64,000 nucleotides of DNA from an uncultured Alphaproteobacteria bacterium (GTDB lineage Bacteria > Pseudomonadota > Alphaproteobacteria > HIMB59 > GCA-002718135), in NCBI GenBank assembly GCA_902614085.1, contig CACMJS010000002.1:234268-298267 (forward strand), given 5' to 3'. Below the pieces are notes generated by a model that did no database searches, had not been told where the DNA came from, and was given only the letters and a program-made list of their open reading frames with translations. Both the position numbers and the translations under genes were made by a program. This document shows positions 34,859-61,575 of the stretch, in pieces; position 1 is the first letter of the stretch; every line of letters starts with the position of its first letter.

Positions 34859-34859
34859 C

Positions 34860-44340: not shown

Positions 44341-45404
44341 TACTTCATACCTGTGCTTGCTATTCCTGTTGTTATAAATTTTTGTAAGTAAGCAAATATA
44401 ATTGCTATAGGTAATAAAGTTACCATAGTCATTGATAATACATAATTCCACTGACTAGTAAGTTCTCCGTGAAATGCGTTTAATCCAATTTGCAATGTAT
44501 AAACTTCACTTTTAGATAAAACTATTAAAGGCCATAAGAAATCATTCCATCTCCACATTATGGAAAAAATTGCTAAAACTGCAATAGCCGGTATAGATAA
44601 AGGTAGGACAACTCGCCAATAAATTGCCCATTCACTTGCGTGATCCATTCTTGCTGCTTCTATAAGCTCTCTAGGCAATGTAAGCATATATTGACGAAGT
44701 AAAAAAACTCCTGTTGGTGTTGCGGCACCTGGAAGAATTACGCCCCATAATGAATTTATCATTCCAAAGTTTGCAACAACATAAAAAACTGGAACCAAAA
44801 TTATCGTTAATGGAATTAATAATGTACCTATAACAAAAACAAGTGCAAAATTTTTCCCCCTAAACTCATATATAGAAAGTGCATATGCTGCCATTGAATT
44901 TATTATTAACGTTATTATTGTGGCAACAACTGTAATGAAAGTTGAGTTTTTGAAATAAAGTAAAAAATCATACTTTCTTAAAGGATCAACATAGTTTTGC
45001 CACTGAATTTTAAATTCTCTAATTTTTTCTCTTTTATCAATTGGTACTTTTACTGTTTCTCCTGGGTTTAGAGGATCAACCATTTTAGCATTAATTCCAA
45101 TTCTTTTAATTTGTGCTAACTGCTTTACTGACCCATCTTCTTGTGTCACATTAAAAATTGGTAAGGGTTTATCGTATCCTTCAACATCAACTTGAATTTG
45201 AGAAAGTGGCAAAATTGTTGGAGGATATTCTTGTATACCTGCTAAGGTCTTTAATGAAGATAATCCTAACCACACAACAGGACCAAACATTAAAAGAACA
45301 CCTAGAAATAAATAAAAATAAGAAAAATAATCTGTCCAATGATATTTATTTTTATATCTTTTTTTTGTAGCAATTTTTATTATTCTTGAAGTTGTTTCTG
45401 ACAT
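44340..45404 (-). CDS. Sugar ABC transporter permease (CUT1, MalG/UgpE-like)
   Basis: 354 aa. EAA-loop region ELIEAARMDHASEWAIYWRVVLP. Confidence 0.85.
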   Translation of the reverse strand: MSETTSRIIKIATKKRYKNKYHWTDYFSYFYLFLGVLLMFGPVVWLGLSSLKTLAGIQEYPPTILPLSQIQVDVEGYDKPLPIFNVTQEDGSVKQLAQIKRIGINAKMVDPLNPGETVKVPIDKREKIREFKIQWQNYVDPLRKYDFLLYFKNSTFITVVATIITLIINSMAAYALSIYEFRGKNFALVFVIGTLLIPLTIILVPVFYVVANFGMINSLWGVILPGAATPTGVFLLRQYMLTLPRELIEAARMDHASEWAIYWRVVLPLSIPAIAVLAIFSIMWRWNDFLWPLIVLSKSEVYTLQIGLNAFHGELTSQWNYVLSMTMVTLLPIAIIFAYLQKFITTGIASTGMK

Positions 45405-45405
45405 A

Positions 45406-46437
45406 TTAGATTTCTTGATGTTTACTTTCTTTGTTTCGACTGAAATATAATTGCATAAGTGTTAAAAATAAAAGTACCACACCAAGAACCATAGATGCGG
45501 CAGCTGCAAGACCAAAATTTTGAACAGATCCAGATGAAGCAAATCCTGTGGTAAAAATATATTGAACAATTAATGATGTAGATGTTCCAGGCCCCCCACC
45601 AGTTAAAACATATATTTCATCAAATGTTTGAACACCTTTTATTGAGGCAAGAATAAATACAACTAATAAATTTGGCATTAGAAGAGGTAGAGTTATTCGA
45701 AAGAAAATTCTTTCTCGGCTAGTTCCATCCATTTCGGCTGCCTCATATAAATTTGGAGGTATTGCTTGAAGACCTGCTAATACAATCAGAGTGTAAAAAC
45801 CCATATGGGCCCATATTGATACAAAGATTACAGATGCCATAGCCCATGATGGATCCGTTAAAAATGATACTTTGTCTCCACCATAAGACTCAATTATAGC
45901 ATTGAAAGCTCCATTTTTTAGCAGTATCCATTGCCAAATCAAACCAACAACAACTGGTGACAATAAAACAGGGAAAAAAAATACCGATCTAAAAAAACCT
46001 CTGCCAATAATTTTCTTATTTAATATCACGGCAGTCAAAACCGAAAAGAAAATCATTAAGCCAACTTGAAAAACAACAAAGAATATAGTGTTATAAACTC
46101 CTCTCCAAAAAAAATCTTCTGTACATGTATTTGGGTTTAAATAACTCTCACAATCAAATAACTGATCATATTGTTTTGTTGTAGGAAGTTCTCTTTCAGC
46201 AAATAACAGTTCGTCACCAGATGATAATGAAAAGAAAAAGTTTGCACCAAGAGGGATTATTACAAATAATCCAAAAAAAATTAAATTTGGAAGCAAAAAA
46301 ATATATGGCATATTTCTTACACCAATAATTTTTTGAATTGGCCACATGATTAAATCAATGGCATGCATTAAAAAAGCAAAGGGAATATTTAAAATTCTAA
46401 GGAAAAATTTTTTTATTTGATTTCTAATATTTTCCAT
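45406..46437 (-). CDS. Sugar ABC transporter permease (CUT1, MalF/UgpA-like)
   Basis: 343 aa. YEAAEMDGTSRERIFFRITLP motif. Confidence 0.85.
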   Translation of the reverse strand: MENIRNQIKKFFLRILNIPFAFLMHAIDLIMWPIQKIIGVRNMPYIFLLPNLIFFGLFVIIPLGANFFFSLSSGDELLFAERELPTTKQYDQLFDCESYLNPNTCTEDFFWRGVYNTIFFVVFQVGLMIFFSVLTAVILNKKIIGRGFFRSVFFFPVLLSPVVVGLIWQWILLKNGAFNAIIESYGGDKVSFLTDPSWAMASVIFVSIWAHMGFYTLIVLAGLQAIPPNLYEAAEMDGTSRERIFFRITLPLLMPNLLVVFILASIKGVQTFDEIYVLTGGGPGTSTSLIVQYIFTTGFASSGSVQNFGLAAAASMVLGVVLLFLTLMQLYFSRNKESKHQEI

Positions 46438-46453
46438 TAAATAAATTCGAAAA

Positions 46454-46478
46454 AAAGCTGCTCAAAAAGAGCAGCTTT
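46454..46478 (-). terminator. Intercistronic hairpin plus T-tract after the SBP gene
   Basis: aaagctgctc / aaaaa / gagcagcttt (10-bp stem). On the minus strand a T-run follows, then the permease gene. Confidence 0.7.
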
Positions 46479-46502
46479 ATATTATTATTATTTTGGATGT
46501 AA

Positions 46503-47783
46503 TTATCCGCCGTATTTTTCTTTAAGTTGTTTTTCAACATCTTCATCCATACGCTCCCAAGCTTCTTCCATTGTCATTTCGCCAACAATAGCCTGTCCTA
46601 ATCTTGAGATGATTGCGTTAAACATTATACGGTTGTCAACGTGTGCCTGAAGATCAAAAGCAACTTGATCAATAGTTGGCACTGCACCAGCAAAAGTGTT
46701 TAATGCGTGTTTTGCGTTTGGATCATCAGTTTGATAGTCAACTTGTAGATCTAAGTGTCCAGGGATAGCAAGAACTTGACCAATAAAACTACTTAGTTGT
46801 TCTTTACTAGAAAGGTAATCCATTACCTTTCCAACAGCAGGATTAGCATTGAATGCTAATAGTGCATTTCCACCTGGCATTCCAGTACATGCAGCAGGAC
46901 CACATGGAGCTGGTACAGCCCACCAGTCAAAATCATCTCCAACTTCATTTGCGAATCTTCCAATTTGCCATGAACCACTCATCATGAAAACTACCTCAGC
47001 AGCATTCCACCAATCATTTGGGGCATGATATTTAGATCCTGAAACTGATCCCCAAAGATCTTTACTCATTGTACCTGCTTGGTGCCAATCATAAAGCATT
47101 TGAGTCATAGCTTTTAATCCATCATCAACTAATTTTGGATCACCGTTTGAATCAAAATATTTCGCTCCCATAGAAATTGCTGGGCCTGATACACGGTGAC
47201 CTGATCTATCCCAAGCCATTGGAATAGGAGTACCTGTTTTTTCTGCTACTTCAATTGAAACTGCTGCCCATTCTTCCCAAGTTGCACCAGGGCCTAATAG
47301 ATCTACACCAGCTTGTTCAAATAAAGTTTTATTTACATATGGACCAGTAACAGTCATTGTAGAATGAAAACCATGAATTGAAGTTGTATCTCCAGACTTA
47401 CGATACCAATTTAAAAAAGGACCGAAGCTTTTTTCATAGTAACTTGGATCAGCTACGTAAGGTGTAATATCAGCGTAATATTTATTTAATCCACCAAGAT
47501 CTGTAACACGTGCAATGTCAGGACCTTCTCCAGCTGCAAGCTGAATAGGTAAGGTGTTCATTATTGCATCATATGGTACAATATCTAAAATTACATTTAT
47601 ATCTGGATTAGCTGCATTAAACTCATCAATTTGTGCTGCGATTGGCACATTTTCTTTATCTCCATCTCCGTACCACATAATTCTTACATCTGTGGCAGCA
47701 AAAGAAACTGCAGAAATTAAAGTTAATGAGAGTGAAATTAAAGCTACAGATATTGCTTTAAAAATAAACTTAATGTTCATCAT
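46503..47783 (-). CDS. Extracellular solute-binding protein, family 1 (CUT1 sugar SBP)
   Basis: 426 aa. Signal peptide ...LISAVSFAA. SBP_bac_1-like. Confidence 0.85.
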   Translation of the reverse strand: MMNIKFIFKAISVALISLSLTLISAVSFAATDVRIMWYGDGDKENVPIAAQIDEFNAANPDINVILDIVPYDAIMNTLPIQLAAGEGPDIARVTDLGGLNKYYADITPYVADPSYYEKSFGPFLNWYRKSGDTTSIHGFHSTMTVTGPYVNKTLFEQAGVDLLGPGATWEEWAAVSIEVAEKTGTPIPMAWDRSGHRVSGPAISMGAKYFDSNGDPKLVDDGLKAMTQMLYDWHQAGTMSKDLWGSVSGSKYHAPNDWWNAAEVVFMMSGSWQIGRFANEVGDDFDWWAVPAPCGPAACTGMPGGNALLAFNANPAVGKVMDYLSSKEQLSSFIGQVLAIPGHLDLQVDYQTDDPNAKHALNTFAGAVPTIDQVAFDLQAHVDNRIMFNAIISRLGQAIVGEMTMEEAWERMDEDVEKQLKEKYGG

Positions 47784-47936: not shown

Positions 47937-49319
47937 ATGAAATTGAAAGTTGGTTACTTTGGTATTGGTCGTTTAACATTTGATACGGGATTGGCTGAAA
48001 AATATTTTCAACTTATTAGTAAAAAAATTAATTTAAAATATAAGAATTCAATTGGTATAGAAAAAATTGTTTACACTGAAACAGATGTAAAAAATTTAAT
48101 AAAATTTTTTAAAAAAAAACCTTGTGATTATTATATAGCAATACAAACAACCTTTACTGATGCTAAATTTATAGTTGAATTTTCAAAAATTTTTTCCGAA
48201 AAGTTTTTGCTCTTGGCCATTCAAGAGAATAGGACGGGCAAAAGATTAAGATTAAATTCTATATGTGGTTTAAATTTAGCATCTCATGCATTACAAAAAA
48301 ATAATTTTTATCCTTCTCTAGATATATTGGATTTAAAAAAAGATTTAAAGAATCAAATTCAAATTAAACTTCCAAGAAGAAAAAAAATCTTTTTAAAATC
48401 ATTAAAATTGAACAAAAAATACAACAAGCAAGCAAATGAAATTTATAAAAAAATAAATAATCAAAATTTAGGCCTAATTGGTAAAAGACCTGAAGGTTTT
48501 TATACATGTGATTTTAATAAATCTGAGTTGAAAGAAAAATTAAAAGTAAATATAAAAAATATATCTTTAAGTAAACTTTTTGATATTTCTAAAAATTTAT
48601 CAAATAAAGAATTAATAAATACCAAAAATAATACAAAAAAATATATTTCAAATCTGGATAAATTAAATCAAAAAGAGTTAAACAAAAGCCTTTCACTTTA
48701 TAATGGTCTGAAAATTATAAAAAGCAAAAATAACTTAGATAATTTAGCAGTTCGATGTTGGCCAGAAACATTTACAGAATATGGTTGTGCAATTTGTGCA
48801 CCTATGGCAATGATGAATGAAGAGCTCGTAAGCAGTGCTTGTGAGGCTGATGTTTTAGGATCAGTAAGCTGTAATATTTTAAATAAAATTTCTAACTCAC
48901 CTGCTTTATTAGTAGATATTGTAGATGTCAGAAAATCAGATCAAACTGCAGTTTTTTGGCATTGCGGACTTGCTCCAAAAAGTATGGCAGATGGAAAAAT
49001 AAAAGCAGGTATACACTCCAACAGACTAAAACCTTTATTACACGAATTTGCTCTTAAGGCAGGTGATATAACTATATTTAGAATATCAAAAACTAGAAAT
49101 AAGTTAATATTCTTTGTGCAAAAAGCAAAGATCTTAAAGAGAAAAAAGTCATTTTCAGGAACATCAGGTGTTGTAACTTTAGGCAGTAGTACATATTCAA
49201 AATTTAAAAGATTATTTGAATCTGGTATTGAGCACCATTTAGGTTTTACTTATGGTAATTTTGAAAAAGAAATAAAGTTGCTTGCAGGAAAATTAAATAT
49301 TCCCGTTTATACATTATGA
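47937..49319 (+). CDS. L-fucose/L-arabinose isomerase-family (COG2407-like) protein
   Basis: 460 aa. VRCWPE...GCAICAPMAMMN...ACEADVLGS pattern, which I recall from FucI-like isomerases. Assignment is tentative. Confidence 0.5.
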   Translation: MKLKVGYFGIGRLTFDTGLAEKYFQLISKKINLKYKNSIGIEKIVYTETDVKNLIKFFKKKPCDYYIAIQTTFTDAKFIVEFSKIFSEKFLLLAIQENRTGKRLRLNSICGLNLASHALQKNNFYPSLDILDLKKDLKNQIQIKLPRRKKIFLKSLKLNKKYNKQANEIYKKINNQNLGLIGKRPEGFYTCDFNKSELKEKLKVNIKNISLSKLFDISKNLSNKELINTKNNTKKYISNLDKLNQKELNKSLSLYNGLKIIKSKNNLDNLAVRCWPETFTEYGCAICAPMAMMNEELVSSACEADVLGSVSCNILNKISNSPALLVDIVDVRKSDQTAVFWHCGLAPKSMADGKIKAGIHSNRLKPLLHEFALKAGDITIFRISKTRNKLIFFVQKAKILKRKKSFSGTSGVVTLGSSTYSKFKRLFESGIEHHLGFTYGNFEKEIKLLAGKLNIPVYTL

Positions 49320-50401
49320 ACAAAATTAAATATGGCATAATTGGAGCAGGTACAATGGCTAGAGAGCATATAAACAATATATCAATTATTGAAGATGCTG
49401 AAGTAGTCGCTTTAAGTGACCCCGATGATCATTCACTTGAAAAATCAAAAAAAATTGCCCCAAATGAAATAAAAATTTTCAATAATTACATCGAAATGGC
49501 TGAGGCAAATTTAGCTGATGTTTTTTTAATATCATCTCCCAATTTCACTCATTATGGAATTGTTAAGGATCTAATTAAATACAATAAGCATTTTTTGATT
49601 GAAAAACCCCTTTGTACTAATACGGCTGATTGTATTGATTTAAAAAAAATAACTACAAATTATAAATCGATAGTTTGGATTGGAATGGAATATAGATACA
49701 TGCCTCCTGTAGCAAAATTTATTCAAAATATTCATAATAATAAAATTGGAGATTTAAAAATGTTAGCCATTAGGGAGCATAGAGAACCTTTCTTGGTTAA
49801 AGTAAATGATTGGAATCGACTATCAAAAAATACAGGTGGTACATTAGTAGAAAAATGCTGTCATTTTTTTGATTTAATGAGATACATTATTAAAAGTGAT
49901 CCAATACAAGTTTACGCTAGTGGTGGGCAAGATGTGAACCATTTAGATGAAGAGTACAACGGTGAAAAATCAGATATTCTTGATAATGCTTATGTAATTG
50001 TTGATTTTGCAAACAAAGTGAGAGCTTCTTTAGATCTCTGTATGTTTGCTGAAAATTCAAATTTTCAAGAAGAACTATCTGCAGTAGGCACTAAAGGCAA
50101 AATAGAAACTGGAGTGCCATCTAGCAAATCTGGAATTAACAAATCAGAAGTTTTCCTTAACTTACGTAATAAGATAAAGCCAGATATTGAAACAATTGAG
50201 GTTGATAACAAAATACTTCAAGCAGGTCATCATCATGGTTCTACATATTATGAGCATCTGAAATTTTTAGATTGTATTAAAAATAAATCTAATCCAGAAG
50301 TTTCTCTTAATGATGGATTGATAGCTGTTGCCACTGGTGAGGCTGCAGAAAAATCAATAAAAGAAAATCGTATAGTTAAGATGAGTGAATTTAATCTTTA
50401 A
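49316..50401 (+). CDS. Gfo/Idh/MocA family oxidoreductase
   Basis: YGIIGAGTMAREH and IEKPL motifs. The start overlaps the upstream stop (ATGA). Confidence 0.85.
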   Translation: MNKIKYGIIGAGTMAREHINNISIIEDAEVVALSDPDDHSLEKSKKIAPNEIKIFNNYIEMAEANLADVFLISSPNFTHYGIVKDLIKYNKHFLIEKPLCTNTADCIDLKKITTNYKSIVWIGMEYRYMPPVAKFIQNIHNNKIGDLKMLAIREHREPFLVKVNDWNRLSKNTGGTLVEKCCHFFDLMRYIIKSDPIQVYASGGQDVNHLDEEYNGEKSDILDNAYVIVDFANKVRASLDLCMFAENSNFQEELSAVGTKGKIETGVPSSKSGINKSEVFLNLRNKIKPDIETIEVDNKILQAGHHHGSTYYEHLKFLDCIKNKSNPEVSLNDGLIAVATGEAAEKSIKENRIVKMSEFNL

Positions 50402-51326
50402 AATTTTCAAAAAATTTATTTGTTTTATCAATTATAAAATTACTTACTCTTACGTTCGATTCCTCAGTTACACCTGCGATATGAGGTGTTAAGATGCAAT
50501 TCATATCATTTGAAATATTTTTATAGAATGTTTCATTTACTGGTTCATTTTCAAAAACATCTAATGCAAAACCAGAGATATATTTGTTTCTATAAGCATC
50601 AATTAAGTCATTCTCATTTATGACACCACCCCTAGAAGTATTAATTATGATTGGTTGTTTTTTCATCTTAATAAAAACTTGTCTGTCAAATAAATACTTT
50701 GTGTCATTATTTAATGGAACATGAATAGAAATTATGTCGGCCAAATTAAGAATTTCATCAAATGATACTTTCTTAACATTATCTTCCTCCATTTGTTTCA
50801 AAGTTATAAAAGGATCATATGCGATACAGGTAACGTCAAAAACATTTACAAGCTTTAAAACTTTTTTTGAAATATCCCCAAAACCTATTAAGCCAAGAGT
50901 CTTTCCTTTTAGCTCTTTTGTAACAATTGATGTTCTTGGCCATGCTCCTTGTAGAGTTAGCTCATTAATAATTTGAGTTTTTTTTAATAATGTAAGGGAA
51001 GAATTCACAACGTATTCAGCAACAGAGTCAGAATTCATACCTGTTGCTGGCTGAACAATGATATTATTATTTTTGCAGTATTCTGTATCTATATTATCAA
51101 GGCCAACACCTAGTCTTCCTATAAACTTTAAATTAGATGCATTTATTAAAATATTCTTATCTAAACTTGTTTTATTCCTTACAATTATTCCATCAAATTT
51201 CTGAATTTCTTTTTCCAAAAAATCTTTATTTTGCCAAGCATCTTTTTTATAAATTACATCAAATTTTTTATTTATATTTTGTAATGATTGTGAATCTATA
51301 AATTCTGTAATTAAAATTTTTGTCAT
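50391..51326 (-). CDS. D-3-phosphoglycerate dehydrogenase-like 2-hydroxyacid dehydrogenase (no ACT domain)
   Basis: 311 aa. GLIGFGDISKKV NAD motif and a SerA-like N-terminal region (GRLGVGLDNID). Confidence 0.8.
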   Translation of the reverse strand: MTKILITEFIDSQSLQNINKKFDVIYKKDAWQNKDFLEKEIQKFDGIIVRNKTSLDKNILINASNLKFIGRLGVGLDNIDTEYCKNNNIIVQPATGMNSDSVAEYVVNSSLTLLKKTQIINELTLQGAWPRTSIVTKELKGKTLGLIGFGDISKKVLKLVNVFDVTCIAYDPFITLKQMEEDNVKKVSFDEILNLADIISIHVPLNNDTKYLFDRQVFIKMKKQPIIINTSRGGVINENDLIDAYRNKYISGFALDVFENEPVNETFYKNISNDMNCILTPHIAGVTEESNVRVSNFIIDKTNKFFENFKD

Positions 51327-52231
51327 TTAATTTTTCTAATTTTTAATTTTTTTGAAAATTTATTTACGTTGTTTAAATTTGGTATTGAATATATGCCACC
51401 AGTTTTCATACATTTTAATGTTGCAGTTGCTGCCGCTAATTGAACACTTTGAGAGTTTGATTTATTTAACGATAGAGCTGTTGCAAAAGCACCATGAAAA
51501 ACATCTCCTGCACAATTTGTTTCAACTGTTTTTACCTTTGGAACATTACAATGAAATAATGAGTTATTTTCAACCCAATAAACACCTTTCGATCCCATAG
51601 TAACTGCAACAAATTTATTTGTTTCATTGAATATTTGAAAAAGAGCATTTTGCATATTGATGTTTTTTTTATAAGTTTTCAAACCTTCTTCAGAAAATAT
51701 AGGGTGAGAAGCTTTGTTAACGATTTCAGAAATTTTATTTGAATTTTTAAAATTATCTAGATCAGCAACACATTTAATATTTTTTTTATTGGTATTAATA
51801 GCAATATTAAAGGCCATATCTATCCATCTCATATCTATTGAGTAAATATCCATTTTTCTAAAATTTAATTTGGGTATTTTCTTATAATCAAGTAATTTTG
51901 GATCATTGTAAGCTGCTAGTAATCTTTCACCTTTTTTATCCTCAATTACAAAGCTTTGCGAAGACTGACATTTTTTTATAAAAATTGATTTACTAGTGTT
52001 GATAGAAAATTTTTTTAATTCATTTTTTAAAAAGACTGAAGAATCATCGTCTCCAAATTTTCCAATGAATTTTGATTCAGAGCCCAAAATTTTTGCAGTA
52101 AATGCCGATACTGCTGCTGACCCGCCTAATCTTTTATCAATACCTCTAGATAAAACTTTAATTGGTTTTTTTGGAAATTTATCTATCCTACTTATGTAAT
52201 CTGTAAATATTGATCCTGCACAAATGATCAT
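51323..52231 (-). CDS. PfkB-family sugar kinase, possibly YihV (sulfofructose kinase)-like subfamily
   Basis: GKFGDDDSS, SSQSFVIEDKKGERL, NCAGDVFHGAFATAL, LKCMKTGG. These resemble my recollection of E. coli YihV strings (GRVGDDDTG, SSQSAIMVDTKGERI, GAGDVFHGALAVAL, LKCTRPGG). The subfamily call is unverified. Confidence 0.8.
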   Translation of the reverse strand: MIICAGSIFTDYISRIDKFPKKPIKVLSRGIDKRLGGSAAVSAFTAKILGSESKFIGKFGDDDSSVFLKNELKKFSINTSKSIFIKKCQSSQSFVIEDKKGERLLAAYNDPKLLDYKKIPKLNFRKMDIYSIDMRWIDMAFNIAINTNKKNIKCVADLDNFKNSNKISEIVNKASHPIFSEEGLKTYKKNINMQNALFQIFNETNKFVAVTMGSKGVYWVENNSLFHCNVPKVKTVETNCAGDVFHGAFATALSLNKSNSQSVQLAAATATLKCMKTGGIYSIPNLNNVNKFSKKLKIRKIK

Positions 52232-52241
52232 AAAATATTAG

Positions 52242-52811
52242 TTAAAGGTATTTAACTATACCGATAAACTTTCTAAACCTATCTCTTATAGTTATAGGAT
52301 TGAGTGGGATAGGATCAATTTTAACATTCCCAGAATTGATCTTTGAAATTATTACATATGAATTATCTTTATCATCAATGGCTTTGTTCAATTCATTAAT
52401 TGTTTCCTCACCAGAACATTCAATTACATTTTTGCAGCCAGCTCCTAATGCAACATCCTTTAAAGAAGTTTTCTCATCAGTAAATGTTCGTTGATCTCCT
52501 GTTGATCCATAAGAGCCATTATCGATTATCAATAAAGTATAGTTTGATGGCGCTCTATTGCCTATTGTTGCTAGGGTATTCATATTCATTAAAACTGATC
52601 CATCACCATCTATACTAATCACGTGTTTATTTTGAGATAGTGCCAAACCTAAGCCAATAGAAGATGATAAGCCCATACTGCCTAACATATAAAAAAAATT
52701 TGGTTGATCACTAATTTTATATAATTCTTGAGATGGAAGACCTATATTACAAATAACTAAGTTATCTTTAAGAATATTTTGTATCTTATTTAATAAATCA
52801 AAACGGTTCAT
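52242..52811 (-). CDS. ThDP-dependent decarboxylase beta subunit (sulfopyruvate decarboxylase ComE-like / PP domain)
   Basis: 189 aa. ThDP-binding motif GDGSVLMNMNTLATIG...NGSYGSTG. Confidence 0.75.
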   Translation of the reverse strand: MNRFDLLNKIQNILKDNLVICNIGLPSQELYKISDQPNFFYMLGSMGLSSSIGLGLALSQNKHVISIDGDGSVLMNMNTLATIGNRAPSNYTLLIIDNGSYGSTGDQRTFTDEKTSLKDVALGAGCKNVIECSGEETINELNKAIDDKDNSYVIISKINSGNVKIDPIPLNPITIRDRFRKFIGIVKYL

Positions 52812-53308
52812 TTATCATCTTTCATTAAATTGAAATCACATAAAATAGCTACTGGTGATTCAATAACTTTGGCATGTTTGCTAAATGTTGAAATTTTATC
52901 TAATTCTTTTTCAGAAGAACAATGCAGGATAGGAATTCTTAATGTTTGTAAAATATCTTCAGTTATTTTCGCCATTCCGCCTTGTGCTCCTACTGGCTCA
53001 CCTGGTGTACCCCTATAACTAATTAGAAAAATAACAGGCATTTGATATAATTGTAATAAAGATACAATTGCGTTCACTGAATTTCCAATTCCTGTATTCT
53101 GCATCATTATACATGGGAATTTATTTCCTAGATAAGCTCCAGCACAAATACCCATACCTTCTTCCTCTCGTGGTACAGCCGAATAATAAACATCCTTATC
53201 ATTTTCAAGAATATCAATCATATTAGCTAACAACTTACACGGAACGCTTAAATAAAAATCTACTCCACCTTTTTTTAAATTATCGATGATTTTTTTACTA
53301 ATTTTCAT
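52808..53308 (-). CDS. ThDP-dependent decarboxylase alpha subunit (sulfopyruvate decarboxylase ComD-like / Pyr domain)
   Basis: 166 aa. SVPCKLL, REEEGMGICAGAYLG, MQNTGIGNSVNAI. It overlaps the beta-subunit start by 4 nt. Confidence 0.75.
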   Translation of the reverse strand: MKISKKIIDNLKKGGVDFYLSVPCKLLANMIDILENDKDVYYSAVPREEEGMGICAGAYLGNKFPCIMMQNTGIGNSVNAIVSLLQLYQMPVIFLISYRGTPGEPVGAQGGMAKITEDILQTLRIPILHCSSEKELDKISTFSKHAKVIESPVAILCDFNLMKDDK

Positions 53309-53355
53309 TTATGCGGATGTCTATAGATATAAAATTATAAAAACAATAAATTAAT

Positions 53356-54408
53356 TTATTTAAAATCATTTCTTAATTTTATTTTTGTGTTTGAATTATA
53401 TTTTTCACCTTCTTTTAATATAGTTGATGGAAAATTTGGTTGATTAATAGCATCAGGAAAAATTTGCGTCTCTAGACACATGCCGTACTGTAAGCCATAA
53501 TTACGATTATGTTTACCATCGTATGAGTCTTTCATCATATTCCCAGTATAAAATTGTATTCCAGGTTGATCTGTAGAGTATTCAACTCCCATACCAGTAA
53601 TTTTACTGTAGATGGAAGCTATAGATTTATCAATTGAATGATCTTTAAGAACATAATTGTGATCGATACCACCACTTTCTAAAAAAGCATTATTTATTTC
53701 AAATGAATTATTAAGATCATATTTTGTATTAACTACATCGAATAATTTACCAGTAGGAATTGAGCCCTCATCAGTTTCACAAATTTGATTTGATGATATT
53801 CTTACAACATGATCAGTAATATTTTTGTAATTATCTTTATGACCGTGGAAATTCCAATAATTATGATTAGTCATATTAACAATAGTATCTTGGTCAGAAA
53901 TAGCATTAAAGGAAATTAGAATTTCGTTATTGTTATTAAGTTCATAAATAGTTTTGCAATTTAAGTTACCTGGATAATTTTCTTCTAAATGTTTAGAGTA
54001 GTAAGTAAGCTCTACTTTTATACTTTCACTTGTTTTTTTAATATCAGCTATTTTCCAAATCTTTTTATTAAAACCTACCTTTCCACCATGAAGATGATCA
54101 GGCTCGGTATTAGAATATAAATTATATTCTTCCCCATTAAGAGTAAATTTACTTTGCCCTATTCTATTACAAACTCTTCCAATAATTGAATTAAAATATC
54201 CATGAGCTTCCAGACAATCATCTAAATTACCATATCCTAATAATACATCCTCTGTTTCAGAGACATTAGAAGAAGTTGGAATACAAACTTCACTCATATA
54301 GCCGCCATATGTATAAAAACTAAAACTATAATTGTTTGAGTTAATAATATTAACTATGTCTATATCTAAACCTTTATCATTTTTAAGTTTGGTAATTTTA
54401 TATTCCAT
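53356..54408 (-). CDS. Aldose 1-epimerase (GalM-like mutarotase)
   Basis: IIGRVCNRIGQSKFTLNGEEYNL...HLHGGKVGFNKKIW motif. Confidence 0.85.
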   Translation of the reverse strand: MEYKITKLKNDKGLDIDIVNIINSNNYSFSFYTYGGYMSEVCIPTSSNVSETEDVLLGYGNLDDCLEAHGYFNSIIGRVCNRIGQSKFTLNGEEYNLYSNTEPDHLHGGKVGFNKKIWKIADIKKTSESIKVELTYYSKHLEENYPGNLNCKTIYELNNNNEILISFNAISDQDTIVNMTNHNYWNFHGHKDNYKNITDHVVRISSNQICETDEGSIPTGKLFDVVNTKYDLNNSFEINNAFLESGGIDHNYVLKDHSIDKSIASIYSKITGMGVEYSTDQPGIQFYTGNMMKDSYDGKHNRNYGLQYGMCLETQIFPDAINQPNFPSTILKEGEKYNSNTKIKLRNDFK

Positions 54409-55307
54409 TATGTTTTCCTTAACCTTTGAAAATTATTTTTTCTTTGTTGAAGATAAATGATTAATCCACCTAAAACTATGAAAAAAGCACCTGGGAAGAG
54501 TTGATCAACTGGCCATTCTGCAAAAAATATCCAACCTAAAATAAGTGCAAAAAATATCTCGATATAATCAAATGGCATAATTTTGCTTAGTTCTGCTTTT
54601 CTAGCACCATATATTAATAATAAAGTTCCAGATCCTCCTGCAATTCCCATGACACAAACTACTAAGAAATCATTTACACTTTTGAAATTTTCCCACATAC
54701 CAAAAAACATCACTAACATACATGCAACTATGATTGTTCCAGTTTGACCATACAAGTTGATCAGTGGTGAAGGAACATGATCCTCAAAACTTAAGGATGT
54801 TACTCTTGCTAATGAATATCCAAAAGCAGCAAGGATAGGTAGTAATAACATATAATTAAAATCTGATGACCAAGGTTGCATAATTAAAACGATACCTACA
54901 AAACCAGAAATTACTGCACTCATTTTGTACCAACCAAATTTTTCACCTAATATAGGAATAGCAAGAAGGGTAACCATCATAGGTCCTGTGTATTCCATGG
55001 TAGCAACTAAAGCAAAAGGGAGGTAGGCATAAGAAGTGTACAAACACAATTGAGCCAGTGCTACAAATACTCCTCGAAATAATCCTAACTTCCATTGTGT
55101 TATTTTTATTTGCCTACCATTGCGATGCCAATCATGTGAAAAATATAAAGCAATAACACATGGTATCATCCCAAATAAATTTCTAAAGACAGAAAGTTGA
55201 GCTGCTGGATATTCGTTTCGTAAAAATTTTATCGCAATGCCCATACAGTCTAATAAGAACAAACCTGAAAGTGATAGAATAACAGCTAAAAATAAATTAT
55301 TTTTCAT
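54408..55307 (-). CDS. DMT superfamily (EamA-like) transporter
   Basis: 299 aa with about 10 TM segments. Its stop overlaps the mutarotase start by 1 nt. Confidence 0.7.
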   Translation of the reverse strand: MKNNLFLAVILSLSGLFLLDCMGIAIKFLRNEYPAAQLSVFRNLFGMIPCVIALYFSHDWHRNGRQIKITQWKLGLFRGVFVALAQLCLYTSYAYLPFALVATMEYTGPMMVTLLAIPILGEKFGWYKMSAVISGFVGIVLIMQPWSSDFNYMLLLPILAAFGYSLARVTSLSFEDHVPSPLINLYGQTGTIIVACMLVMFFGMWENFKSVNDFLVVCVMGIAGGSGTLLLIYGARKAELSKIMPFDYIEIFFALILGWIFFAEWPVDQLFPGAFFIVLGGLIIYLQQRKNNFQRLRKT

Positions 55308-55317: not shown

Positions 55318-56379
55318 TTATTCATCTAAAATAATTTCTTTTCCTATTTCTTGACTTTTATAAATTCCATCTAAGATTTTCATTACTTGAAGAGAGTGTT
55401 CAGCTGGAATAGTAACAGCTTTATCATTTGCTACAAAATCTGCAAACTCAATACATTCTTTTGCATGAGCTTCAATGTTGTCTTTTAAATTTCCTTCTAT
55501 TTTTTTAGTTATATGAGTTTGAGAACTGATATCATTTTTTATAATTTCACAGTTGGGCCAATGTAAACCAGCTTCCCTTCCATATAACCATACCTGCATA
55601 TCTTCTAGTTTATCTTCTGGCAATTTATGATGAAGCATCCATGATACTTCAAGCATTAAGGTTGCACCATTTTTAAACCTAACAAATGCAGCTGCAAAAT
55701 CTTCAACGTTCATTGCTTCCTTATCGTACTCTCCATTATAACTAAAAGAAGTAGGTTGCTTTGCTAATTCTGTTTTTGACACACCTGTCACAGAAAGTGG
55801 TTCTGGGTTGTTCATAAACCATAGAGTTAAATCTAATACGTGCACCCCTATATCAATACAAGGACCTCCTCCTGAATTTTCTTTTTTTAAAAAACCAAGT
55901 GAGACTGGTAAATAATTTCTTCTAAGCATCCAAGAACGTGCATGATATATCGAACCAATTAATTTGGATTCTTCTTTTATTAATTGAGAATCTTTTCTGA
56001 ATCTAAAGTGTTGAGCACACATTAATTTTTTTTTCGTTTGATCTCTTACTTCAATCATTTTTTTTATTTGTGAAGCATTTGGAGCTAAGGGTTTTTCACA
56101 TAAAACATCTTTGCCAGCTTGCATTGCTTTAATTGCTAAATCACAGTGATAGTTATTAGGTGCACAAATATCTATAATATCTATATCTGGATCATTAATC
56201 ATGTCTAAAGGATCATGATATAATTTTTTTATTTGATTTGTATTACCCCAATCTTCAAGAATTGATTTGTTTATATCAGAGCCTGCTATTAATTCAGTAT
56301 GTTCAGACATATGCCAACCAGGAATGTGTAGTTTTGCAATACCCCCAACACCAATGATACCAACTTTTAATTTACTCAT
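55318..56379 (-). CDS. Gfo/Idh/MocA family oxidoreductase
   Basis: VGIIGVGGIAKLH and CEKPLA motifs. Confidence 0.85.
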   Translation of the reverse strand: MSKLKVGIIGVGGIAKLHIPGWHMSEHTELIAGSDINKSILEDWGNTNQIKKLYHDPLDMINDPDIDIIDICAPNNYHCDLAIKAMQAGKDVLCEKPLAPNASQIKKMIEVRDQTKKKLMCAQHFRFRKDSQLIKEESKLIGSIYHARSWMLRRNYLPVSLGFLKKENSGGGPCIDIGVHVLDLTLWFMNNPEPLSVTGVSKTELAKQPTSFSYNGEYDKEAMNVEDFAAAFVRFKNGATLMLEVSWMLHHKLPEDKLEDMQVWLYGREAGLHWPNCEIIKNDISSQTHITKKIEGNLKDNIEAHAKECIEFADFVANDKAVTIPAEHSLQVMKILDGIYKSQEIGKEIILDE

Positions 56380-56397
56380 TTGTACATTTTTTTTTAT

Positions 56398-57387
56398 TTA
56401 GATATTTATCCATTTTTTTTCTTTTTCTGACTGGTAAATTGATTCCATTATACTACTTCTCAATGCAGCTTCTGAAGGAGTTACTAAGTTTTTGTTATCA
56501 TTGTTTATTATTGCATTAAGAAATAAATCAAATGCATGAGGTAATGTTTCTGGTAAATTTTCTTCTATTCTTTCTATTTTTGCACGATCCTTATTTTCAT
56601 TTATAATTAATTTATCAATCGTTGTTCTTGCGTGAGCTTTTGTTCCGCTTAAAAAAATAGTATATGGTTGCTCTATATCTATCCAACCTGCTGCAATACT
56701 AGCAATTAATCCACTTTTAAATTTTAATAATGCCTCTCCACTTTCTTCACAGCCCGGGTATTGATTATATATTTTTGTAAAGGTTGCGCTTACTGACTCA
56801 ACATCAGAAAAAAACCACAAAAGAAGATCTAAAACATGTGTTCCTAAATCGCCAAAAGCTCCAACTCCTGCAACTTTAGGATCTGTCATCCATTGATAGT
56901 TTTGGAAAATATCTCTCATAATACCGTCATGGCAATTAACGAGTCGAATTCTTGAAATATCACCAAAATAGTTAGTATTAATTAATTCTTTAAGTTTTAT
57001 GTATACAGGATTGCTTCTCATAAAATAGCCAGTTTGAAAAATAATTTTTGAAGATTCTATTAAGTTTGCCATTTCAAAAGAATCTTTTTTCCCTAATCCC
57101 AGAGGTTTTTCAATAAAGCAGTGTTTTTTATGTTCAGTAATTTTTTTAACTAATTCATAGTGCAAGTTAGTTTCTGAACAAACAATAACGCCATCTAAAT
57201 TAGGTTCTTTCAGTAAATTAATATAGTCATCATAATTCTTACATTTCAGTTTTTCAGAGTCACTTTTAGACCTGTTCTTATCTTTGTCCCAAACACCAAT
57301 ACAATTAATTTGATTGTTTGAAATTACCTTAGAAATAAAATTTGGCGTATGAATATGAGAGGTTCCAATAAATGCAATATTTTTCAT
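56398..57387 (-). CDS. Gfo/Idh/MocA family oxidoreductase (divergent N-terminal dinucleotide motif)
   Basis: IAFIGTSHIHTPNF, IEKPLG, and a Gfo-type C-terminal domain. Confidence 0.75.
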   Translation of the reverse strand: MKNIAFIGTSHIHTPNFISKVISNNQINCIGVWDKDKNRSKSDSEKLKCKNYDDYINLLKEPNLDGVIVCSETNLHYELVKKITEHKKHCFIEKPLGLGKKDSFEMANLIESSKIIFQTGYFMRSNPVYIKLKELINTNYFGDISRIRLVNCHDGIMRDIFQNYQWMTDPKVAGVGAFGDLGTHVLDLLLWFFSDVESVSATFTKIYNQYPGCEESGEALLKFKSGLIASIAAGWIDIEQPYTIFLSGTKAHARTTIDKLIINENKDRAKIERIEENLPETLPHAFDLFLNAIINNDNKNLVTPSEAALRSSIMESIYQSEKEKKWINI

Positions 57388-57405: not shown

Positions 57406-58392
57406 TTATAGAGCACAACACTGATCAACCCAATGACCTGGTTCAACTTCAGTAAGCCCCATTTTTATTTCTCCACCTTTGCAATCTATTCCGGGATTAG
57501 GACATCTAGTTCTAAACACACAACCTGGAGGTGGATGTAATGCGCTGGGAATTTCTCCTTTTAATTCTATAGCTTCAGATCTTTTCTCAGGATCAATTGA
57601 TGGAATAGAAGATAATAATGCTTTTGTATAAGAATGTTTAGGGTTCTTAAATAATTGTCTTGAGGGTCCCATTTCAACTATATGCCCCAAATACATAACT
57701 GCAACCACATCACATACATGCGCTACTACACTTAAATCATGACTTATAAATAAGTAAGTAAGGTTTAGTTCAGTTTGAAGTTGTTTTAAAAGATTTAATA
57801 TATCTGCTTGTATTGACACATCTAAAGCAGCAACACTTTCATCTGCTACAATAAATTTTGGATTACTTACTAAGGCTCTTGCAATTGATATTCTTTGCCT
57901 TTGCCCTCCAGAAAATGCATGGGGAAACCTTCTTAAATGTTCAATATTTAATCTACATTTAGCTGCTATATCTCTTACTCTTTCATCAGTCTCTTGTCTT
58001 GAATTTGTTATTTTCATTACTTCCAAAGGTTCTGCTATAATATCTCTGACTGTCATTCTTGGGCTTAAAGCAGCATAAGGATCTTGAAAGATTAGTTGGG
58101 CTTTTTTTCTATATTCTTTTAAATCTTGTTTGTTCATATTTGTTAAATCATAATCTCTTTCATCATCATGAAAAATAACATTTCCTGAACTAATTTTATT
58201 AGCTCCAAGTATTGCCCTGCCAAGAGTAGTTTTTCCTGAACCAGACTCACCTACTAAACCAAAAAAAGATCCTTTTTGAATTTTGATATTAATATTGTTT
58301 ACAGCATGTATTTTTTGTTTTTTTGAAATAAAATTCTCTTGATAATCAAAATTTACAGAAACATTATTTACTGAAATTAAATTATTACCCAT
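57406..58392 (-). CDS. Opp/Dpp-type ABC ATP-binding protein (OppF-like)
   Basis: GESGSGKTT, FSGGQRQR, and a C-terminal oligopeptide-type domain with 4-5 Cys. I chose the start MGNNLISVNN (cat at 58390-58392). Confidence 0.85.
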   Translation of the reverse strand: MGNNLISVNNVSVNFDYQENFISKKQKIHAVNNINIKIQKGSFFGLVGESGSGKTTLGRAILGANKISSGNVIFHDDERDYDLTNMNKQDLKEYRKKAQLIFQDPYAALSPRMTVRDIIAEPLEVMKITNSRQETDERVRDIAAKCRLNIEHLRRFPHAFSGGQRQRISIARALVSNPKFIVADESVAALDVSIQADILNLLKQLQTELNLTYLFISHDLSVVAHVCDVVAVMYLGHIVEMGPSRQLFKNPKHSYTKALLSSIPSIDPEKRSEAIELKGEIPSALHPPPGCVFRTRCPNPGIDCKGGEIKMGLTEVEPGHWVDQCCAL

Positions 58393-59374
58393 TTTGACCA
58401 CACTTAATTCCACACTGATCAACCCAGTGACCTGGTTCAACTTCAATTAATTTCATTTCAATTTTACCATCTTTACCCTCTGGATTGTGATGAGGGCATC
58501 TAGTTCTAAACACACAACCAGTAGGTCTATCTAATGGACTTGGAATGTTTCCAGGTATTGGGGATAATGGTGCATCTAAGTTATTTATATCAGGCAAGGC
58601 TTGCAATAGACCTTTTGTATAAGGATGTTTGGGATTTTTAAGAATCTCATTTACTGGACCTTTTTCTACTACACTACCTAAATACATTACTGCTACATGA
58701 TCAGCTACCTGAGCAATAACACCTAGATCATGAGTAATAAATATTACTCCCATTTGATATTCTTTTATAATATCTTTAATTAAGTTAATTACTTGAGCTT
58801 GAATTGTTACATCTAAAGCAGTTGTTGGCTCATCTGCCAATAAAAGTTTTGGCATAGTTGAAAGCGCCATAGCTATCATCGCTCTTTGACGCATTCCTCC
58901 AGATAATTCAAATGCATATTGGTTAAAGCGTTTTTCTGCATCTGCAATACCTACTCTTTTAAGCATGTTTATAGATATAGATTTTGCTTCATCTTTATTA
59001 ATTTTTTTATGTATTAGTAATTGCTCAACCATTTGTGCGCCAATTTTTATTGCTGGAGCAAAACTTGCCATAGGCTCTTGAAAAATCATTGATACTTTAC
59101 CACCTCTAATTTTTTTTAAGTCTTGTTTAGAAGTAAACTGAAGAACGTTTTCATTATCCAAAATTATTTCTGCATCTTCATTATAAGAGGTGTTACCTGG
59201 GTTTAATTTCATAATTGATTTAGCTGTCACAGATTTTCCTGACCCAGATTCACCAACTATACCAAGTACTTCACCTTGATCTACAGAAAGTGAGATGTTT
59301 TCAACTGCTGTAATTCTACCTTCATCAGTATCAAATTTTACATCTAAGTTTTTTACTTCTAATAAATGACTCAT
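58385..59374 (-). CDS. Opp/Dpp-type ABC ATP-binding protein (OppD-like)
   Basis: GESGSGKSV, LSGGMRQR, and a Cys-rich C-terminal domain. Confidence 0.9.
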   Translation of the reverse strand: MSHLLEVKNLDVKFDTDEGRITAVENISLSVDQGEVLGIVGESGSGKSVTAKSIMKLNPGNTSYNEDAEIILDNENVLQFTSKQDLKKIRGGKVSMIFQEPMASFAPAIKIGAQMVEQLLIHKKINKDEAKSISINMLKRVGIADAEKRFNQYAFELSGGMRQRAMIAMALSTMPKLLLADEPTTALDVTIQAQVINLIKDIIKEYQMGVIFITHDLGVIAQVADHVAVMYLGSVVEKGPVNEILKNPKHPYTKGLLQALPDINNLDAPLSPIPGNIPSPLDRPTGCVFRTRCPHHNPEGKDGKIEMKLIEVEPGHWVDQCGIKCGQNG

Positions 59375-59375
59375 A

Positions 59376-60536: not shown

Positions 60537-61539
60537 CCATAACTCCTTTTCTTATTCTTGGATCAATTATAGCTAAAATAATATCTGTTATAAAATTTAC
60601 AAAAACAATTGTTGCCGTTAAAAGAAAAATAATAGCACCTGCTAATTGCTGATCATTTGATCTTGCTAAAGCTTCAATCAATAATGCGCCAGCTTCCGTA
60701 AGAATTAAAATTAATGCTACAATCGGTAATGCACTAAATATTCGATTAAGATCAAAACCTATAGAATTAATAACTGGACCTAATGAATGTTTTGCGGGAT
60801 ATCTCCACAATAAACTCATCCCAGATATTCCTCTGGCTCTTGCAGCCATTACATATAATTTATCATTTTCATCTAACATTAGCGCTCTAACTGTTTGAAG
60901 AGCAAAGGCAGTTGCATTCCAACCTAAAACAAAAATGGGGAGCCAAGCTCTGCTTAAAAAATCGAATAATTTTGCTGATGACCATGGTTCGTTTTCATAT
61001 TCTTGAGAAAAGAGACCTGTCATTGTATCCCCATAATAAACAGTCATAAAAAGCATAATACAGAGTGCTACTAAAAAGTTGGGAAGTGCTATTCCAAGAT
61101 AACTAATAAATTTAAGGGTATTATCTAATGAAGCATATTTTGTCGTGGCCGATATAATCCCAACTGGTATGGCTATTAAATATGAAAATATTAGTGCAAC
61201 CAAACATATTGTTAGAGATAAAGTAAATCTTCCACTTAATAATTCATTAATATTCATTCTTAAAATACAACTGTCACCAAAATCTCCATTAAAAACTATA
61301 TTAGAAACCCATTTGCCATATCTGTACAAAAAAGGTTTATCCAAACCTAAACGAATTTTTTCTTTTTCTATATCTTCATACGTTATTTGTGATCCTTGGG
61401 TATTTTTAAATGCAAGATATCTTTCAGCACAAGTTCCAGGAACTAATTCCATTAACGAAAAAACAATAAAGCATACAAGAAGCAAAGTTATAACTGCAAG
61501 TCCCGCTCGTGTAAGAGTAAATTGTATAAAATTAATCAT
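60526..61539 (-). CDS. Opp/Dpp-type ABC permease (OppB-like)
   Basis: 337 aa. YVMAARARGISGMSLLWRYPAKH motif. Confidence 0.85.
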   Translation of the reverse strand: MINFIQFTLTRAGLAVITLLLVCFIVFSLMELVPGTCAERYLAFKNTQGSQITYEDIEKEKIRLGLDKPFLYRYGKWVSNIVFNGDFGDSCILRMNINELLSGRFTLSLTICLVALIFSYLIAIPVGIISATTKYASLDNTLKFISYLGIALPNFLVALCIMLFMTVYYGDTMTGLFSQEYENEPWSSAKLFDFLSRAWLPIFVLGWNATAFALQTVRALMLDENDKLYVMAARARGISGMSLLWRYPAKHSLGPVINSIGFDLNRIFSALPIVALILILTEAGALLIEALARSNDQQLAGAIIFLLTATIVFVNFITDIILAIIDPRIRKGVMGGG

Positions 61540-61575
61540 ATAAAATAATTAGAAAATAAGAATAATTAAAAAAAG

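Follow-up and report, generated by a model that had tools for sequence, protein, structure and literature searches.

Why would a bacterium of the HIMB59/AEGEAN-169 clade – abundant, streamlined bacterioplankton of the surface ocean – carry a split thiamine diphosphate (ThDP) decarboxylase of the sulfopyruvate decarboxylase type (ComD and ComE, together ComDE) in the midst of sugar genes? We address this question for a 64,000-nucleotide stretch of DNA from an uncultured alphaproteobacterium (contig CACMJS010000002.1, positions 234,268 to 298,267; GC content ~30%), referred to below as the window. An earlier reading of the sequence alone (the sequence-only reading) had singled out six genes at 50391-55307 as a possible operon leading from sulfosugars or C3 sulfonates to sulfoacetaldehyde. 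This central idea is supported by the two tests which that reading had itself proposed, of ComDE against phosphonopyruvate decarboxylases and of the adjoining YihV-like kinase against RbsK and KdgK, as well as by two neighbouring genes, homologues of the sulfoquinovosidase SqgA and of the sulfoquinovose isomerase SftI. We consider it likely that the locus is a sulfoquinovose (SQ) cluster and, with more measured confidence, propose that it combines an upper pathway of the Embden-Meyerhof-Parnas type of sulfoglycolysis (sulfo-EMP), acting on SQ glycosides, with a branch that would turn C3 into C2 sulfonates.

All six genes are present on the minus strand with the boundaries originally proposed, and Pfam and NCBIfam bear out every family. 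Together with the genes that face them, they are as follows (aa, amino acids; ABC, ATP-binding cassette; DMT, drug/metabolite transporter):

54408-55307, minus strand: EamA/DMT transporter, 299 aa, possibly a sulfonate exporter (Pfam EamA, 84 bits)
53356-54408, minus strand: GalM-type aldose 1-epimerase, 350 aa, candidate SQ mutarotase (Pfam Aldose_epim, 232 bits)
52808-53308, minus strand: ComD, predicted sulfopyruvate decarboxylase alpha subunit, ThDP PYR domain, 166 aa (TIGR03845)
52242-52811, minus strand: ComE, predicted sulfopyruvate decarboxylase beta subunit, ThDP PP domain, 189 aa (TIGR03846)
51323-52231, minus strand: YihV-like PfkB kinase, 302 aa, candidate sulfofructose kinase (YihV alignment)
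50391-51326, minus strand: SerA-like short (type III) D-2-hydroxyacid dehydrogenase, 311 aa, candidate (S)-3-sulfolactate dehydrogenase
49316-50401, plus strand: SqgA, homologue of the GH188 NAD+-dependent sulfoquinovosidase, 361 aa (PDB 8qc3 match)
47937-49319, plus strand: homologue of SQ isomerases of the SftI/SqvD type (fucose-isomerase fold), 460 aa (NF048012 match)
42248-47783, minus strand: sugar ABC importer, candidate importer of sulfoquinovosyl-glycerol (SQGro) (family scans)

The six minus-strand genes at 50391-55307 close a co-directional array of 13 genes that starts with an Opp-type ABC system (57406-63680); its intergenic gaps are 0-47 nt except for one of 86 nt 3' of the binding-protein gene. 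The comD and comE genes overlap by 4 nt, the comE stop is 10 nt from the kinase start, and the kinase and SerA-like genes overlap by 4 nt. Promoter and terminator scans were of little help – promoter-like sites are fewer in the window than in shuffled sequence, and the only terminator-like hairpin within the array lies at 61573-61607, 3' of the binding-protein gene – and the operon limits therefore rest on gene spacing. Within ~7 kb there stand five independent families linked to SQ or to sulfonates, in an arrangement that recurs in most species-level relatives; such a co-occurrence is far above chance expectation.

The gene at 49316-50401, which the sequence-only reading had counted among the IolG-like Gfo/Idh/MocA paralogues, turned out to be a homologue of GH188 SqgA. 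Its product matches ArSqgA over the full length (PDB 8qc3; E = 8e-106, 357 bits, 48% identity), closely followed by FlSqgA (8qc2, 353 bits) and the unnamed entry 8zn9 (305 bits); the next structure reaches 92 bits, and inositol dehydrogenase structures only about 40-60 bits. The catalytic residues K107, Y136, E189, H193 and H321 and the sulfonate-binding residues R166, L170 and K172 defined for SqgA (PMC10755693) – eight in all – are kept in the window protein as well as in seven divergent alleles of relatives, and this strong homology leads us to predict that the protein is a GH188 sulfoquinovosidase. Upstream of sqgA and translationally coupled to it lies the isomerase gene, whose product has NF048012 'sulfoquinovose isomerase' as its sole NCBIfam match (E = 1.4e-81, 274.6 bits, full-length), just a weak Fucose_iso_C match in Pfam and no relative in the PDB. 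The homology is moderate and points to a putative SQ isomerase of the SftI/SqvD type, in a window from which an SQ isomerase of known type had been reported missing. When the SerA-like gene, ComE, the SBP1 binding protein and the permeases are compared (loci L001-L056), the window's sqgA-sftI pair is 57-68% and 45-62% identical, respectively, to the pair in genomes with 91-100% identical flanking genes. This allele is uncommon, with a best metagenome match of 71%, and the pair looks like an allelic cassette swapped by recombination.

We compared the PfkB kinase with YihV, RbsK and KdgK of E. coli K-12, taken from the annotated genome. Among these three it is closest to YihV (36% identity, 170 bits, full length), as the sequence-only reading had suspected; RbsK follows with 24% identity and 50 bits, and KdgK gives no significant match. 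With reference to the residue roles defined for YihV by Sharma et al. (PMC8006165), the kinase keeps D13, K27, S95, R138 and the catalytic D244, that is, two of the three residues of the K-R-N sulfonate triad formed by K27, R138 and N109. On this moderate homology it is a candidate sulfofructose kinase.

The split ThDP enzyme exceeds the curated NCBIfam cut-offs of both ComDE models, with ComD scoring 160.6 bits on TIGR03845 (cut-off 147.95) and ComE 224.3 bits on TIGR03846 (cut-off 221.5). The GDG-X25-DN ThDP motif of the PP subunit and the glutamate of the PYR domain are legible in the translations (GDGSVLMNMNTLATIGNRAPSNYTLLIIDN and REEEG), and separate, adjoining PYR and PP subunits with the GDG-X(24-27)-N pattern are the architecture of ComDE. 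Since a protein search with ComE was filled by close relatives, a search of 50%-identity cluster representatives was needed to leave the clade; it returned no full-length representative more than 51% identical to the query. Identities of ComD are 39-43% to Methanobacteriaceae ComD, 40% to that of a Methanocaldococcus sp. and 57% to that of a Candidatus Desulfatibia metagenome-assembled genome (MAG); for ComE they are 38-51% (51% for the Methanobrevibacter type), 46% and 54%, respectively. On the ComE model, the ten nearest full-length or fused cluster representatives reach 201-238 bits; two of these have genomic relatives that are mostly methanogens and Asgard archaea, with scattered bacteria besides. 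The resemblance to ComDE that had been noticed in size and motifs is thus borne out by curated cut-offs and by 40-51% identity to methanogen ComDE, and on this strong homology we predict the pair to be a sulfopyruvate decarboxylase.

The SerA-like protein scores 249 bits on the phosphoglycerate dehydrogenase (PGDH) model, with only the catalytic part covered, and its best PDB match is the short type III PGDH 1wwk (177 bits). Aligned with E. coli SerA, it keeps R60, N108, R240, E269 and H292, with R62 replaced by Lys and K141 by Arg; in SerA, R240, E269 and H292 are catalytic, and R60, R62, N108 and K141 form a cationic pocket. This pocket is absent from the other 2-hydroxyacid dehydrogenase of the window (43327-44451). 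The conversion of (S)-sulfolactaldehyde to (S)-sulfolactate and on to sulfopyruvate is established chemistry, and (S)-sulfolactate is the enantiomer derived from SQ (PMC12421959). From the Cahn-Ingold-Prelog rules we infer that (S)-sulfolactate matches D-3-phosphoglycerate in spatial arrangement, so that a D-specific enzyme would be of the right handedness.

The best backing for such a role comes from the company that the SerA-like gene keeps in other genomes. A metagenome scan with SqgA recovered SerA-like orthologues inside SqgA/YihV/SftI clusters of other taxa. On high-GC contigs (L242, L251) the gene is flanked, within YihV/aldolase/SftI/SqgA clusters, by a SuyB-like gene on one side and, on the other, by an Ldh_2 gene whose best match is L-sulfolactate dehydrogenase (ComC-like), which backs a role as sulfolactate dehydrogenase. 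On a marine metagenome contig with a GC content of about 0.38-0.39 (L203, 4735-12447), a co-directional run starts with a CsqR-like regulator gene, continues with a YihT-family aldolase, SftI-like, SqgA and YihV-like genes and ends with the SerA-like gene; a glycerol kinase gene (GlpK) lies convergent beside it, which fits SQGro as the substrate. The SerA-like gene thus accompanies homologues of sulfopyruvate or sulfolactate enzymes across phyla, and an unexplained 'D-3-phosphoglycerate dehydrogenase' has been noted in actinobacterial GH188 clusters with SuyAB (PMC11465081). Stereochemistry, the kept cationic pocket and gene association together suggest that the protein may be an (S)-sulfolactate dehydrogenase.

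Is the arrangement a peculiarity of this genome? The comparison set comprises 80 loci, recovered with the ComE-like protein from genomes collected at one per species. Single-cell genomes with the label uncultured Alphaproteobacteria make up the majority, a few carry the label Pelagibacteraceae, MarineAlpha5 or 'HIMB59-LRMED', and the window is accordingly placed in the HIMB59/AEGEAN-169 lineage. The PfkB gene lies directly 3' of comE, co-directional and separated by 7-22 nt, in 60 of 71 species-level relatives, and the order PfkB-SerA-SqgA-SftI is found in 45 of 57. Of 76 relatives, 73 have galM upstream of comD, and the DMT gene is likewise retained (71 of 74). Independent low-GC metagenome contigs also show sqgA facing a SerA-kinase-ComE-ComD array. 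The set of GalM, ComD, ComE, YihV-like and SerA-like genes facing SqgA and SftI, together with a sugar ABC importer, therefore recurs across the HIMB59 order.

In the pathway that we propose, the adjoining ABC system would import SQGro, as its position suggests, and SqgA would cleave SQGro to SQ and glycerol, a step backed by strong homology. The GalM-type mutarotase may equilibrate the SQ anomers, a role suggested by context. By moderate homology in each case, the SftI/SqvD-type isomerase would convert SQ to sulfofructose and the YihV-like kinase would phosphorylate sulfofructose to sulfofructose-1-phosphate. Two steps without a gene follow: an aldolase encoded outside the window would split sulfofructose-1-phosphate into dihydroxyacetone phosphate (DHAP) and (S)-sulfolactaldehyde, and some dehydrogenase would oxidise the latter to (S)-sulfolactate. 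The SerA-like enzyme could then, judging by gene context, oxidise (S)-sulfolactate to 3-sulfopyruvate, and ComDE, by strong homology, would decarboxylate sulfopyruvate to sulfoacetaldehyde. Sulfoacetaldehyde could afterwards be cleaved by Xsc, or be reduced or oxidised and then exported via the DMT transporter. We judge the chain as a whole, including functional coupling of the SQ genes to ComDE, to be moderately probable. That the clade at large runs such a 'sulfo-EMP plus ComDE' route, taking SQGro to DHAP, CO2 and a C2 sulfonate, meaning sulfoacetaldehyde and what is made from it, in one cell, with a SerA-type enzyme recruited as (S)-sulfolactate dehydrogenase and with interchangeable island cassettes, is a more tentative proposal, which we would not yet call probable.

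The roles at either end of the route are assigned largely from gene context. The aldose 1-epimerase scores 257 and 227 bits on NCBIfam GalM models, both under cut-off, and is only 22% identical to YihR; its neighbours suggest that it may serve as the SQ mutarotase. Export of a sulfonate end product by the DMT protein is a possible role, likewise suggested by its place in the array. The ABC importer is divergent from sftI, and an SBP1-type ABC system lies 3' of sftI in most island-bearing relatives whose loci reach that far, with very different alleles; context suggests that the system may import SQGro.

Several observations weigh against this pathway. Missing from the window are homologues of YihS, YihT, YihU, YihQ, YihO and YihP as well as a sulfofructose-phosphate (SFP) aldolase, the sole aldolase there being of the Eda type in a 2-keto-3-deoxygluconate (KDG) module. 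Neither an aldehyde dehydrogenase nor Xsc was found among the window's open reading frames (ORFs) scanned against Pfam and NCBIfam (most of those of at least 120 aa). The SFP aldolase and Xsc are thus indeed absent, as the sequence-only reading had noted, and the route lacks genes for two steps in its middle and for its end. The 274.6 bits of the isomerase are far under the NF048012 cut-off of 700, which makes it a homologue below the equivalog level; YihV N109 is replaced by Ala in all alleles of the kinase, with an Asn or Ser two positions on; the margins of ComD and ComE over their curated cut-offs are narrow; and a comparison of SBP1 with solved structures gave no SmoF-like match, that is, no similarity to a known SQGro-binding protein. 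The aldolase step is encoded in the cluster elsewhere: seven related species have a LacD/YihT-family aldolase gene upstream of sftI, as do other taxa, its product in the relatives being 25% identical to YihT with K193, S226 and R253 kept. The window's subclade is not among the carriers, and a search with this aldolase, by a method that reaches close relatives only, found eight close relatives and none in that subclade.

The genomic setting adds further points on the same side. Eleven species without SQ genes retain ComDE, galM and the DMT gene, and in these an agmatinase-family gene follows comE 3', either at once or after a few sugar genes. The corresponding gene of the window is located at 20706-21644, and the segment between it and comE (21.6-52.2 kb) can therefore be recognised as a flexible carbohydrate island; the same site (21641-52231 in the window) is empty in some related species and in others holds a few genes or other sugar modules. 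The SQ genes are the ComE-proximal end of this island. Furthermore, in the Desulfatibia MAG (L097, 9495-11914), comD and comE are followed by a convergent agmatinase-family gene, as in the island-free HIMB59 genomes; its product is 46% identical to that of the window, and an SsuA-family sulfonate-binding protein is encoded nearby. With an island inserted next to comE and a ComDE-agmatinase pairing elsewhere, the adjacency of ComDE to the SQ genes may be positional only. A functional tie of ComDE to this ureohydrolase, acting for instance on a guanidino-sulfonate, is conceivable.

These points amount to a rival account in which the SQ genes, here the YihV-like, SerA-like, SqgA, SftI and ABC genes, make up an island module complete in itself, with sulfolactate or 2,3-dihydroxypropane-1-sulfonate (DHPS) as its end point, and ComDE is an older core pair that became their neighbour when the island was inserted; ComDE could then help to break down cysteate, sulfolactate or DHPS taken up by the cell, or make sulfoacetaldehyde for taurine or isethionate. 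The account is consistent with the agmatinase-family gene found (nearly) directly after comE in L072, L078 and L079, with the small or different islands of L045, L055, L068 and L071, with the Desulfatibia pairing and its SsuA-family protein, and with the L203-type taxon (GC about 0.38), where no ComDE is in view around a full aldolase-SftI-SqgA-YihV-SerA operon. Conservation fits as well: ComDE are 75-98% conserved, and the kinase (51-96%) and the SerA-like protein (53-93%) vary like island genes. What the account leaves without an answer is the fate of sulfopyruvate, as the product of a SerA-type enzyme needs a consumer and the cluster has neither a SuyAB pair nor an adjoining ComC-like partner. 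It also sits poorly with the mutarotase gene, which stays with comDE even where the island is missing and would be odd for a pure C3-sulfonate function, and with the co-directional kinase gene that follows comE so closely in 60 of 71 species. This is the foremost competitor to our reading; we regard it as rather unlikely, and it bears on the coupling to ComDE.

Three other explanations concern the enzymes themselves. If the cluster handled an ordinary neutral sugar, the SerA-like protein would be a real PGDH, the kinase a generic ketose kinase, and the substrate of GH188 and the isomerase would be a glycoside without a sulfonate group; the SerA-like protein does keep every catalytic and anion-binding residue of PGDH (R62 and K141 as the exchanges given above), and the SftI and GalM scores stay under curated cut-offs. 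We nevertheless consider this improbable, since every SqgA allele keeps R166, L170 and K172, which bind the sulfonate, the YihV-specific K27 and R138 are present in the kinase, and the SerA-like gene recurs beside sulfolactate-enzyme homologues in other taxa; moreover, being missing from the 11 species, it is not a housekeeping serA. The sequence-only reading had itself raised the possibility that the ThDP enzyme cleaves C-C bonds as a minimal counterpart of IolD, in an inositol-type (cyclitol) pathway that the Gfo/Idh/MocA paralogues would serve; the wider island indeed has many of these, along with a xylose-isomerase-like TIM barrel. This possibility now appears very improbable: the ThDP proteins match the ComD, ComE and phosphonopyruvate decarboxylase (Ppd) models and, weakly (at most 32 bits), models of the acetolactate-synthase type, with no IolD model at the thresholds used; IolD is a ~640-aa PYR/middle/PP protein, whereas here there are two short subunits without a middle domain. 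No IolE-, IolB- or IolJ-type gene lies near the ThDP genes, the flanking genes being in other families; the sole match to the IolC model is the YihV-like kinase, with 70 bits against a cut-off of 300; and the adjoining supposed IolG is SqgA, with its 357 bits against about 40-60 for inositol dehydrogenases. We give just as little credence to the view that the split enzyme is a RhiEF-type Ppd of phosphonate biosynthesis. RhiEF is the closest solved structure (PDB 9iz3; 85 bits for the beta and 59 bits for the alpha subunit), in a set of PDB matches that holds no ComDE structure for comparison. Ppd model TIGR03297, however, gives only 99 bits for ComD and 133.6 bits for ComE against a cut-off of 312.5, which none of the ten nearest cluster representatives reaches either; the pair groups with methanogen and Asgard ComDE, its nearest relatives, and neither pepM nor any other phosphonate gene is present among the family-scanned ORFs of the window.

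The remaining features of the array, the importer and the island are these (AKR, aldo-keto reductase; SDR, short-chain dehydrogenase/reductase):

57406-63680, minus strand: Opp/Dpp-type ABC importer with a 684-aa SBP_bac_5 protein, two permeases and two ATPases
55318-57387, minus strand: two Gfo/Idh/MocA oxidoreductases, the first (55318-56379) DgpA-like
46503-47783, minus strand: SBP_bac_1 binding protein (SBP1) of the ABC importer, which has two UgpAE-like permeases
43327-44451, minus strand: 2-hydroxyacid dehydrogenase inside the ABC operon, 374 aa, without the SerA-type anion pocket
42248-43330, minus strand: MalK/UgpC ATPase of the ABC importer
32632-37073: UxuA, Ldh_2, a mannitol-dehydrogenase-family gene and an SDR (island)
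24912-32527: lactonase, enolase-type dehydratase and AKR set with a ribose-type ABC system (island)
23420-24880: alpha-L-fucosidase (island)
21641-23087: KdgK and Eda (island)

The Opp/Dpp-type importer is conserved at 84-100% in relatives. The hairpin at 61573-61607, bidirectional and composed of 15 pairs and a T-run, is located between the gene for its 684-aa binding protein and the permease genes, and is likely an attenuator that yields surplus binding-protein transcript. The protein encoded at 55318-56379 matches the C-glycoside 3-oxidase DgpA1 (PDB 9m3d, 181 bits), the second Gfo/Idh/MocA protein has generic matches only, and the pair is absent from many relatives, in which oppF directly precedes the DMT gene; it is probably an optional insert outside the SQ route. 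The ORF at 43327-44451 has a GTG start and overlaps the upstream permease gene by 112 nt; as family alignments begin near residue 65-70, translation probably starts further downstream. A 404-aa protein (38978-40192) without a Pfam or NCBIfam match is encoded by the gene that ends the ABC/Gfo array; we considered and rejected it as the aldolase. By eye, its N-terminus IFDIHTHLFP resembles the HxH motif of amidohydrolase-fold or uronate-isomerase-like proteins. A GH31 protein encoded beside comD in L076 was similarly dismissed as a sulfoquinovosidase, as it is without W304 and Y508 of YihQ.

Besides the sets listed, the island holds several Gfo/Idh/MocA genes with a TIM-barrel partner. Two more distant genes had been mentioned in the sequence-only reading in connection with the route. 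The Ldh_2 gene at 33809-34858 does belong to that family (Pfam, 293 bits); a part in sulfonate metabolism is not supported, because the ureidoglycolate and sulfolactate dehydrogenase models score equally, both under cut-off. The gene lies among hexuronate-type genes, its product is 24-25% identical to those of the SerA-linked Ldh_2 genes elsewhere, and we do not count it as a member of the system. The ORF that starts at 63832 has a sulfatase-like N-terminus, as had been said, with only 56 codons within the window; its participation in the pathway is likewise unsupported. In other genomes, a sulfatase and a formylglycine-generating enzyme are encoded 3' of the ABC genes beside the SQ module (L025, 18061-20039; L061, L063, L066, L069, L070 and others), and the use of sulfated and of sulfonated sugars is possibly linked in such islands. 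Outside the island, the core region carries a heme biosynthesis cluster (6158-12401) with genes for coproporphyrinogen oxidase, ferrochelatase, uroporphyrinogen decarboxylase, a 502-aa HemC fusion and 5-aminolevulinate synthase.

What would such a cluster mean? SQ is a plant and algal sulfosugar produced on the gigatonne scale, and its turnover in the sea is ascribed mainly to Roseobacter, Alteromonas and similar copiotrophs. A full-text literature search returned no paper that joins HIMB59 with sulfopyruvate decarboxylase or SQ with HIMB59/AEGEAN-169, and no description of an SQ cluster with ComDE. A recent review of aquatic SQ mentions neither ComDE nor the clade, a second review does not mention sulfopyruvate, the clade goes unmentioned in an SQ stable-isotope-probing study, and sulfonates go unmentioned in the AEGEAN-169 genomics papers. 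If our reading is correct, it would provide a specific, testable substrate for a clade of which no more than a generic 'expanded sugar metabolism' has been known. Should the clade at large run such a route, it would be a major overlooked sink of this sulfosugar, the most abundant one in the ocean, and would supply C2 sulfonates or sulfite. Our reading would also constitute a new exit from sulfoglycolysis, from sulfolactate via sulfopyruvate to sulfoacetaldehyde by way of a SerA-type dehydrogenase, and give a function to the unexplained 'D-3-phosphoglycerate dehydrogenase' gene in GH188 clusters of several phyla. The carbohydrate and sulfonate island is itself a flexible island of HIMB59 comparable to the phosphate islands already described.

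In the literature searched, the cluster appears to be previously undescribed, its closest counterparts being sulfo-EMP clusters with SqgA and actinobacterial GH188/SuyAB clusters. With the sulfo-EMP pathway of E. coli (yihO-yihW) and its modified form in Arthrobacter, it shares an SQ glycosidase, a mutarotase, an SQ isomerase and a PfkB sulfofructose kinase; the glycosidase is of the Arthrobacter SqgA type (48% identity), and some relatives, unlike the window, also have the YihT-family class I aldolase with K193 and R253 kept. It differs in that the isomerase is of the SftI/SqvD (fucose-isomerase) type and not YihS, the mutarotase is of the GalM type and not YihR, there is no YihU reductase, YihO/YihP transporter or regulator, and the DHPS or sulfolactate end point is replaced by the SerA-like dehydrogenase and ComDE. 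The GH188 'Tyr-variant' clusters of Actinobacteria, put forward so far as potential new pathways only (Backlund and Higgins 2024, PMC11465081), and those on L242 and L251 have the same set of GH188, fucose-isomerase-like, sulfofructose kinase, D-3-phosphoglycerate-dehydrogenase-like and ABC genes, at times with an SFP aldolase. In these actinobacterial and high-GC clusters, sulfolactate would be handled by SuyAB with a ComC-like partner and sulfite released, whereas ComDE here should give sulfoacetaldehyde; in contrast to the 'Tyr-variant', the window GH188 keeps the canonical L170.

The transketolase variant of sulfoglycolysis (the sulfo-TK pathway) of Clostridium sp. MSTE9 has in common with the proposed route an SqvD/SftI-type isomerase, a ThDP step and sulfoacetaldehyde as end product. 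Its ThDP enzyme is, however, a transketolase that acts on sulfofructose and sulfoerythrulose, with no kinase, while that of the window is a predicted 2-oxoacid decarboxylase accompanied by a YihV-type kinase, and the likeness is in end product only. RhiEF (PDB 9IZ3) has the same two-subunit PYR/PP architecture, with a similarity (85 and 59 bits) far below that to ComDE proteins. Finally, Roseovarius nubinhibens (SlcD, ComDE and Xsc) and the archaeal coenzyme M route (ComC and ComDE) likewise lead from sulfolactate via sulfopyruvate to sulfoacetaldehyde. Unlike in these systems, with neither Xsc nor coenzyme M genes in view, the proposed sulfolactate dehydrogenase would be of the SerA type rather than SlcD or ComC (Ldh_2), and the branch would be fused to a sulfosugar module.

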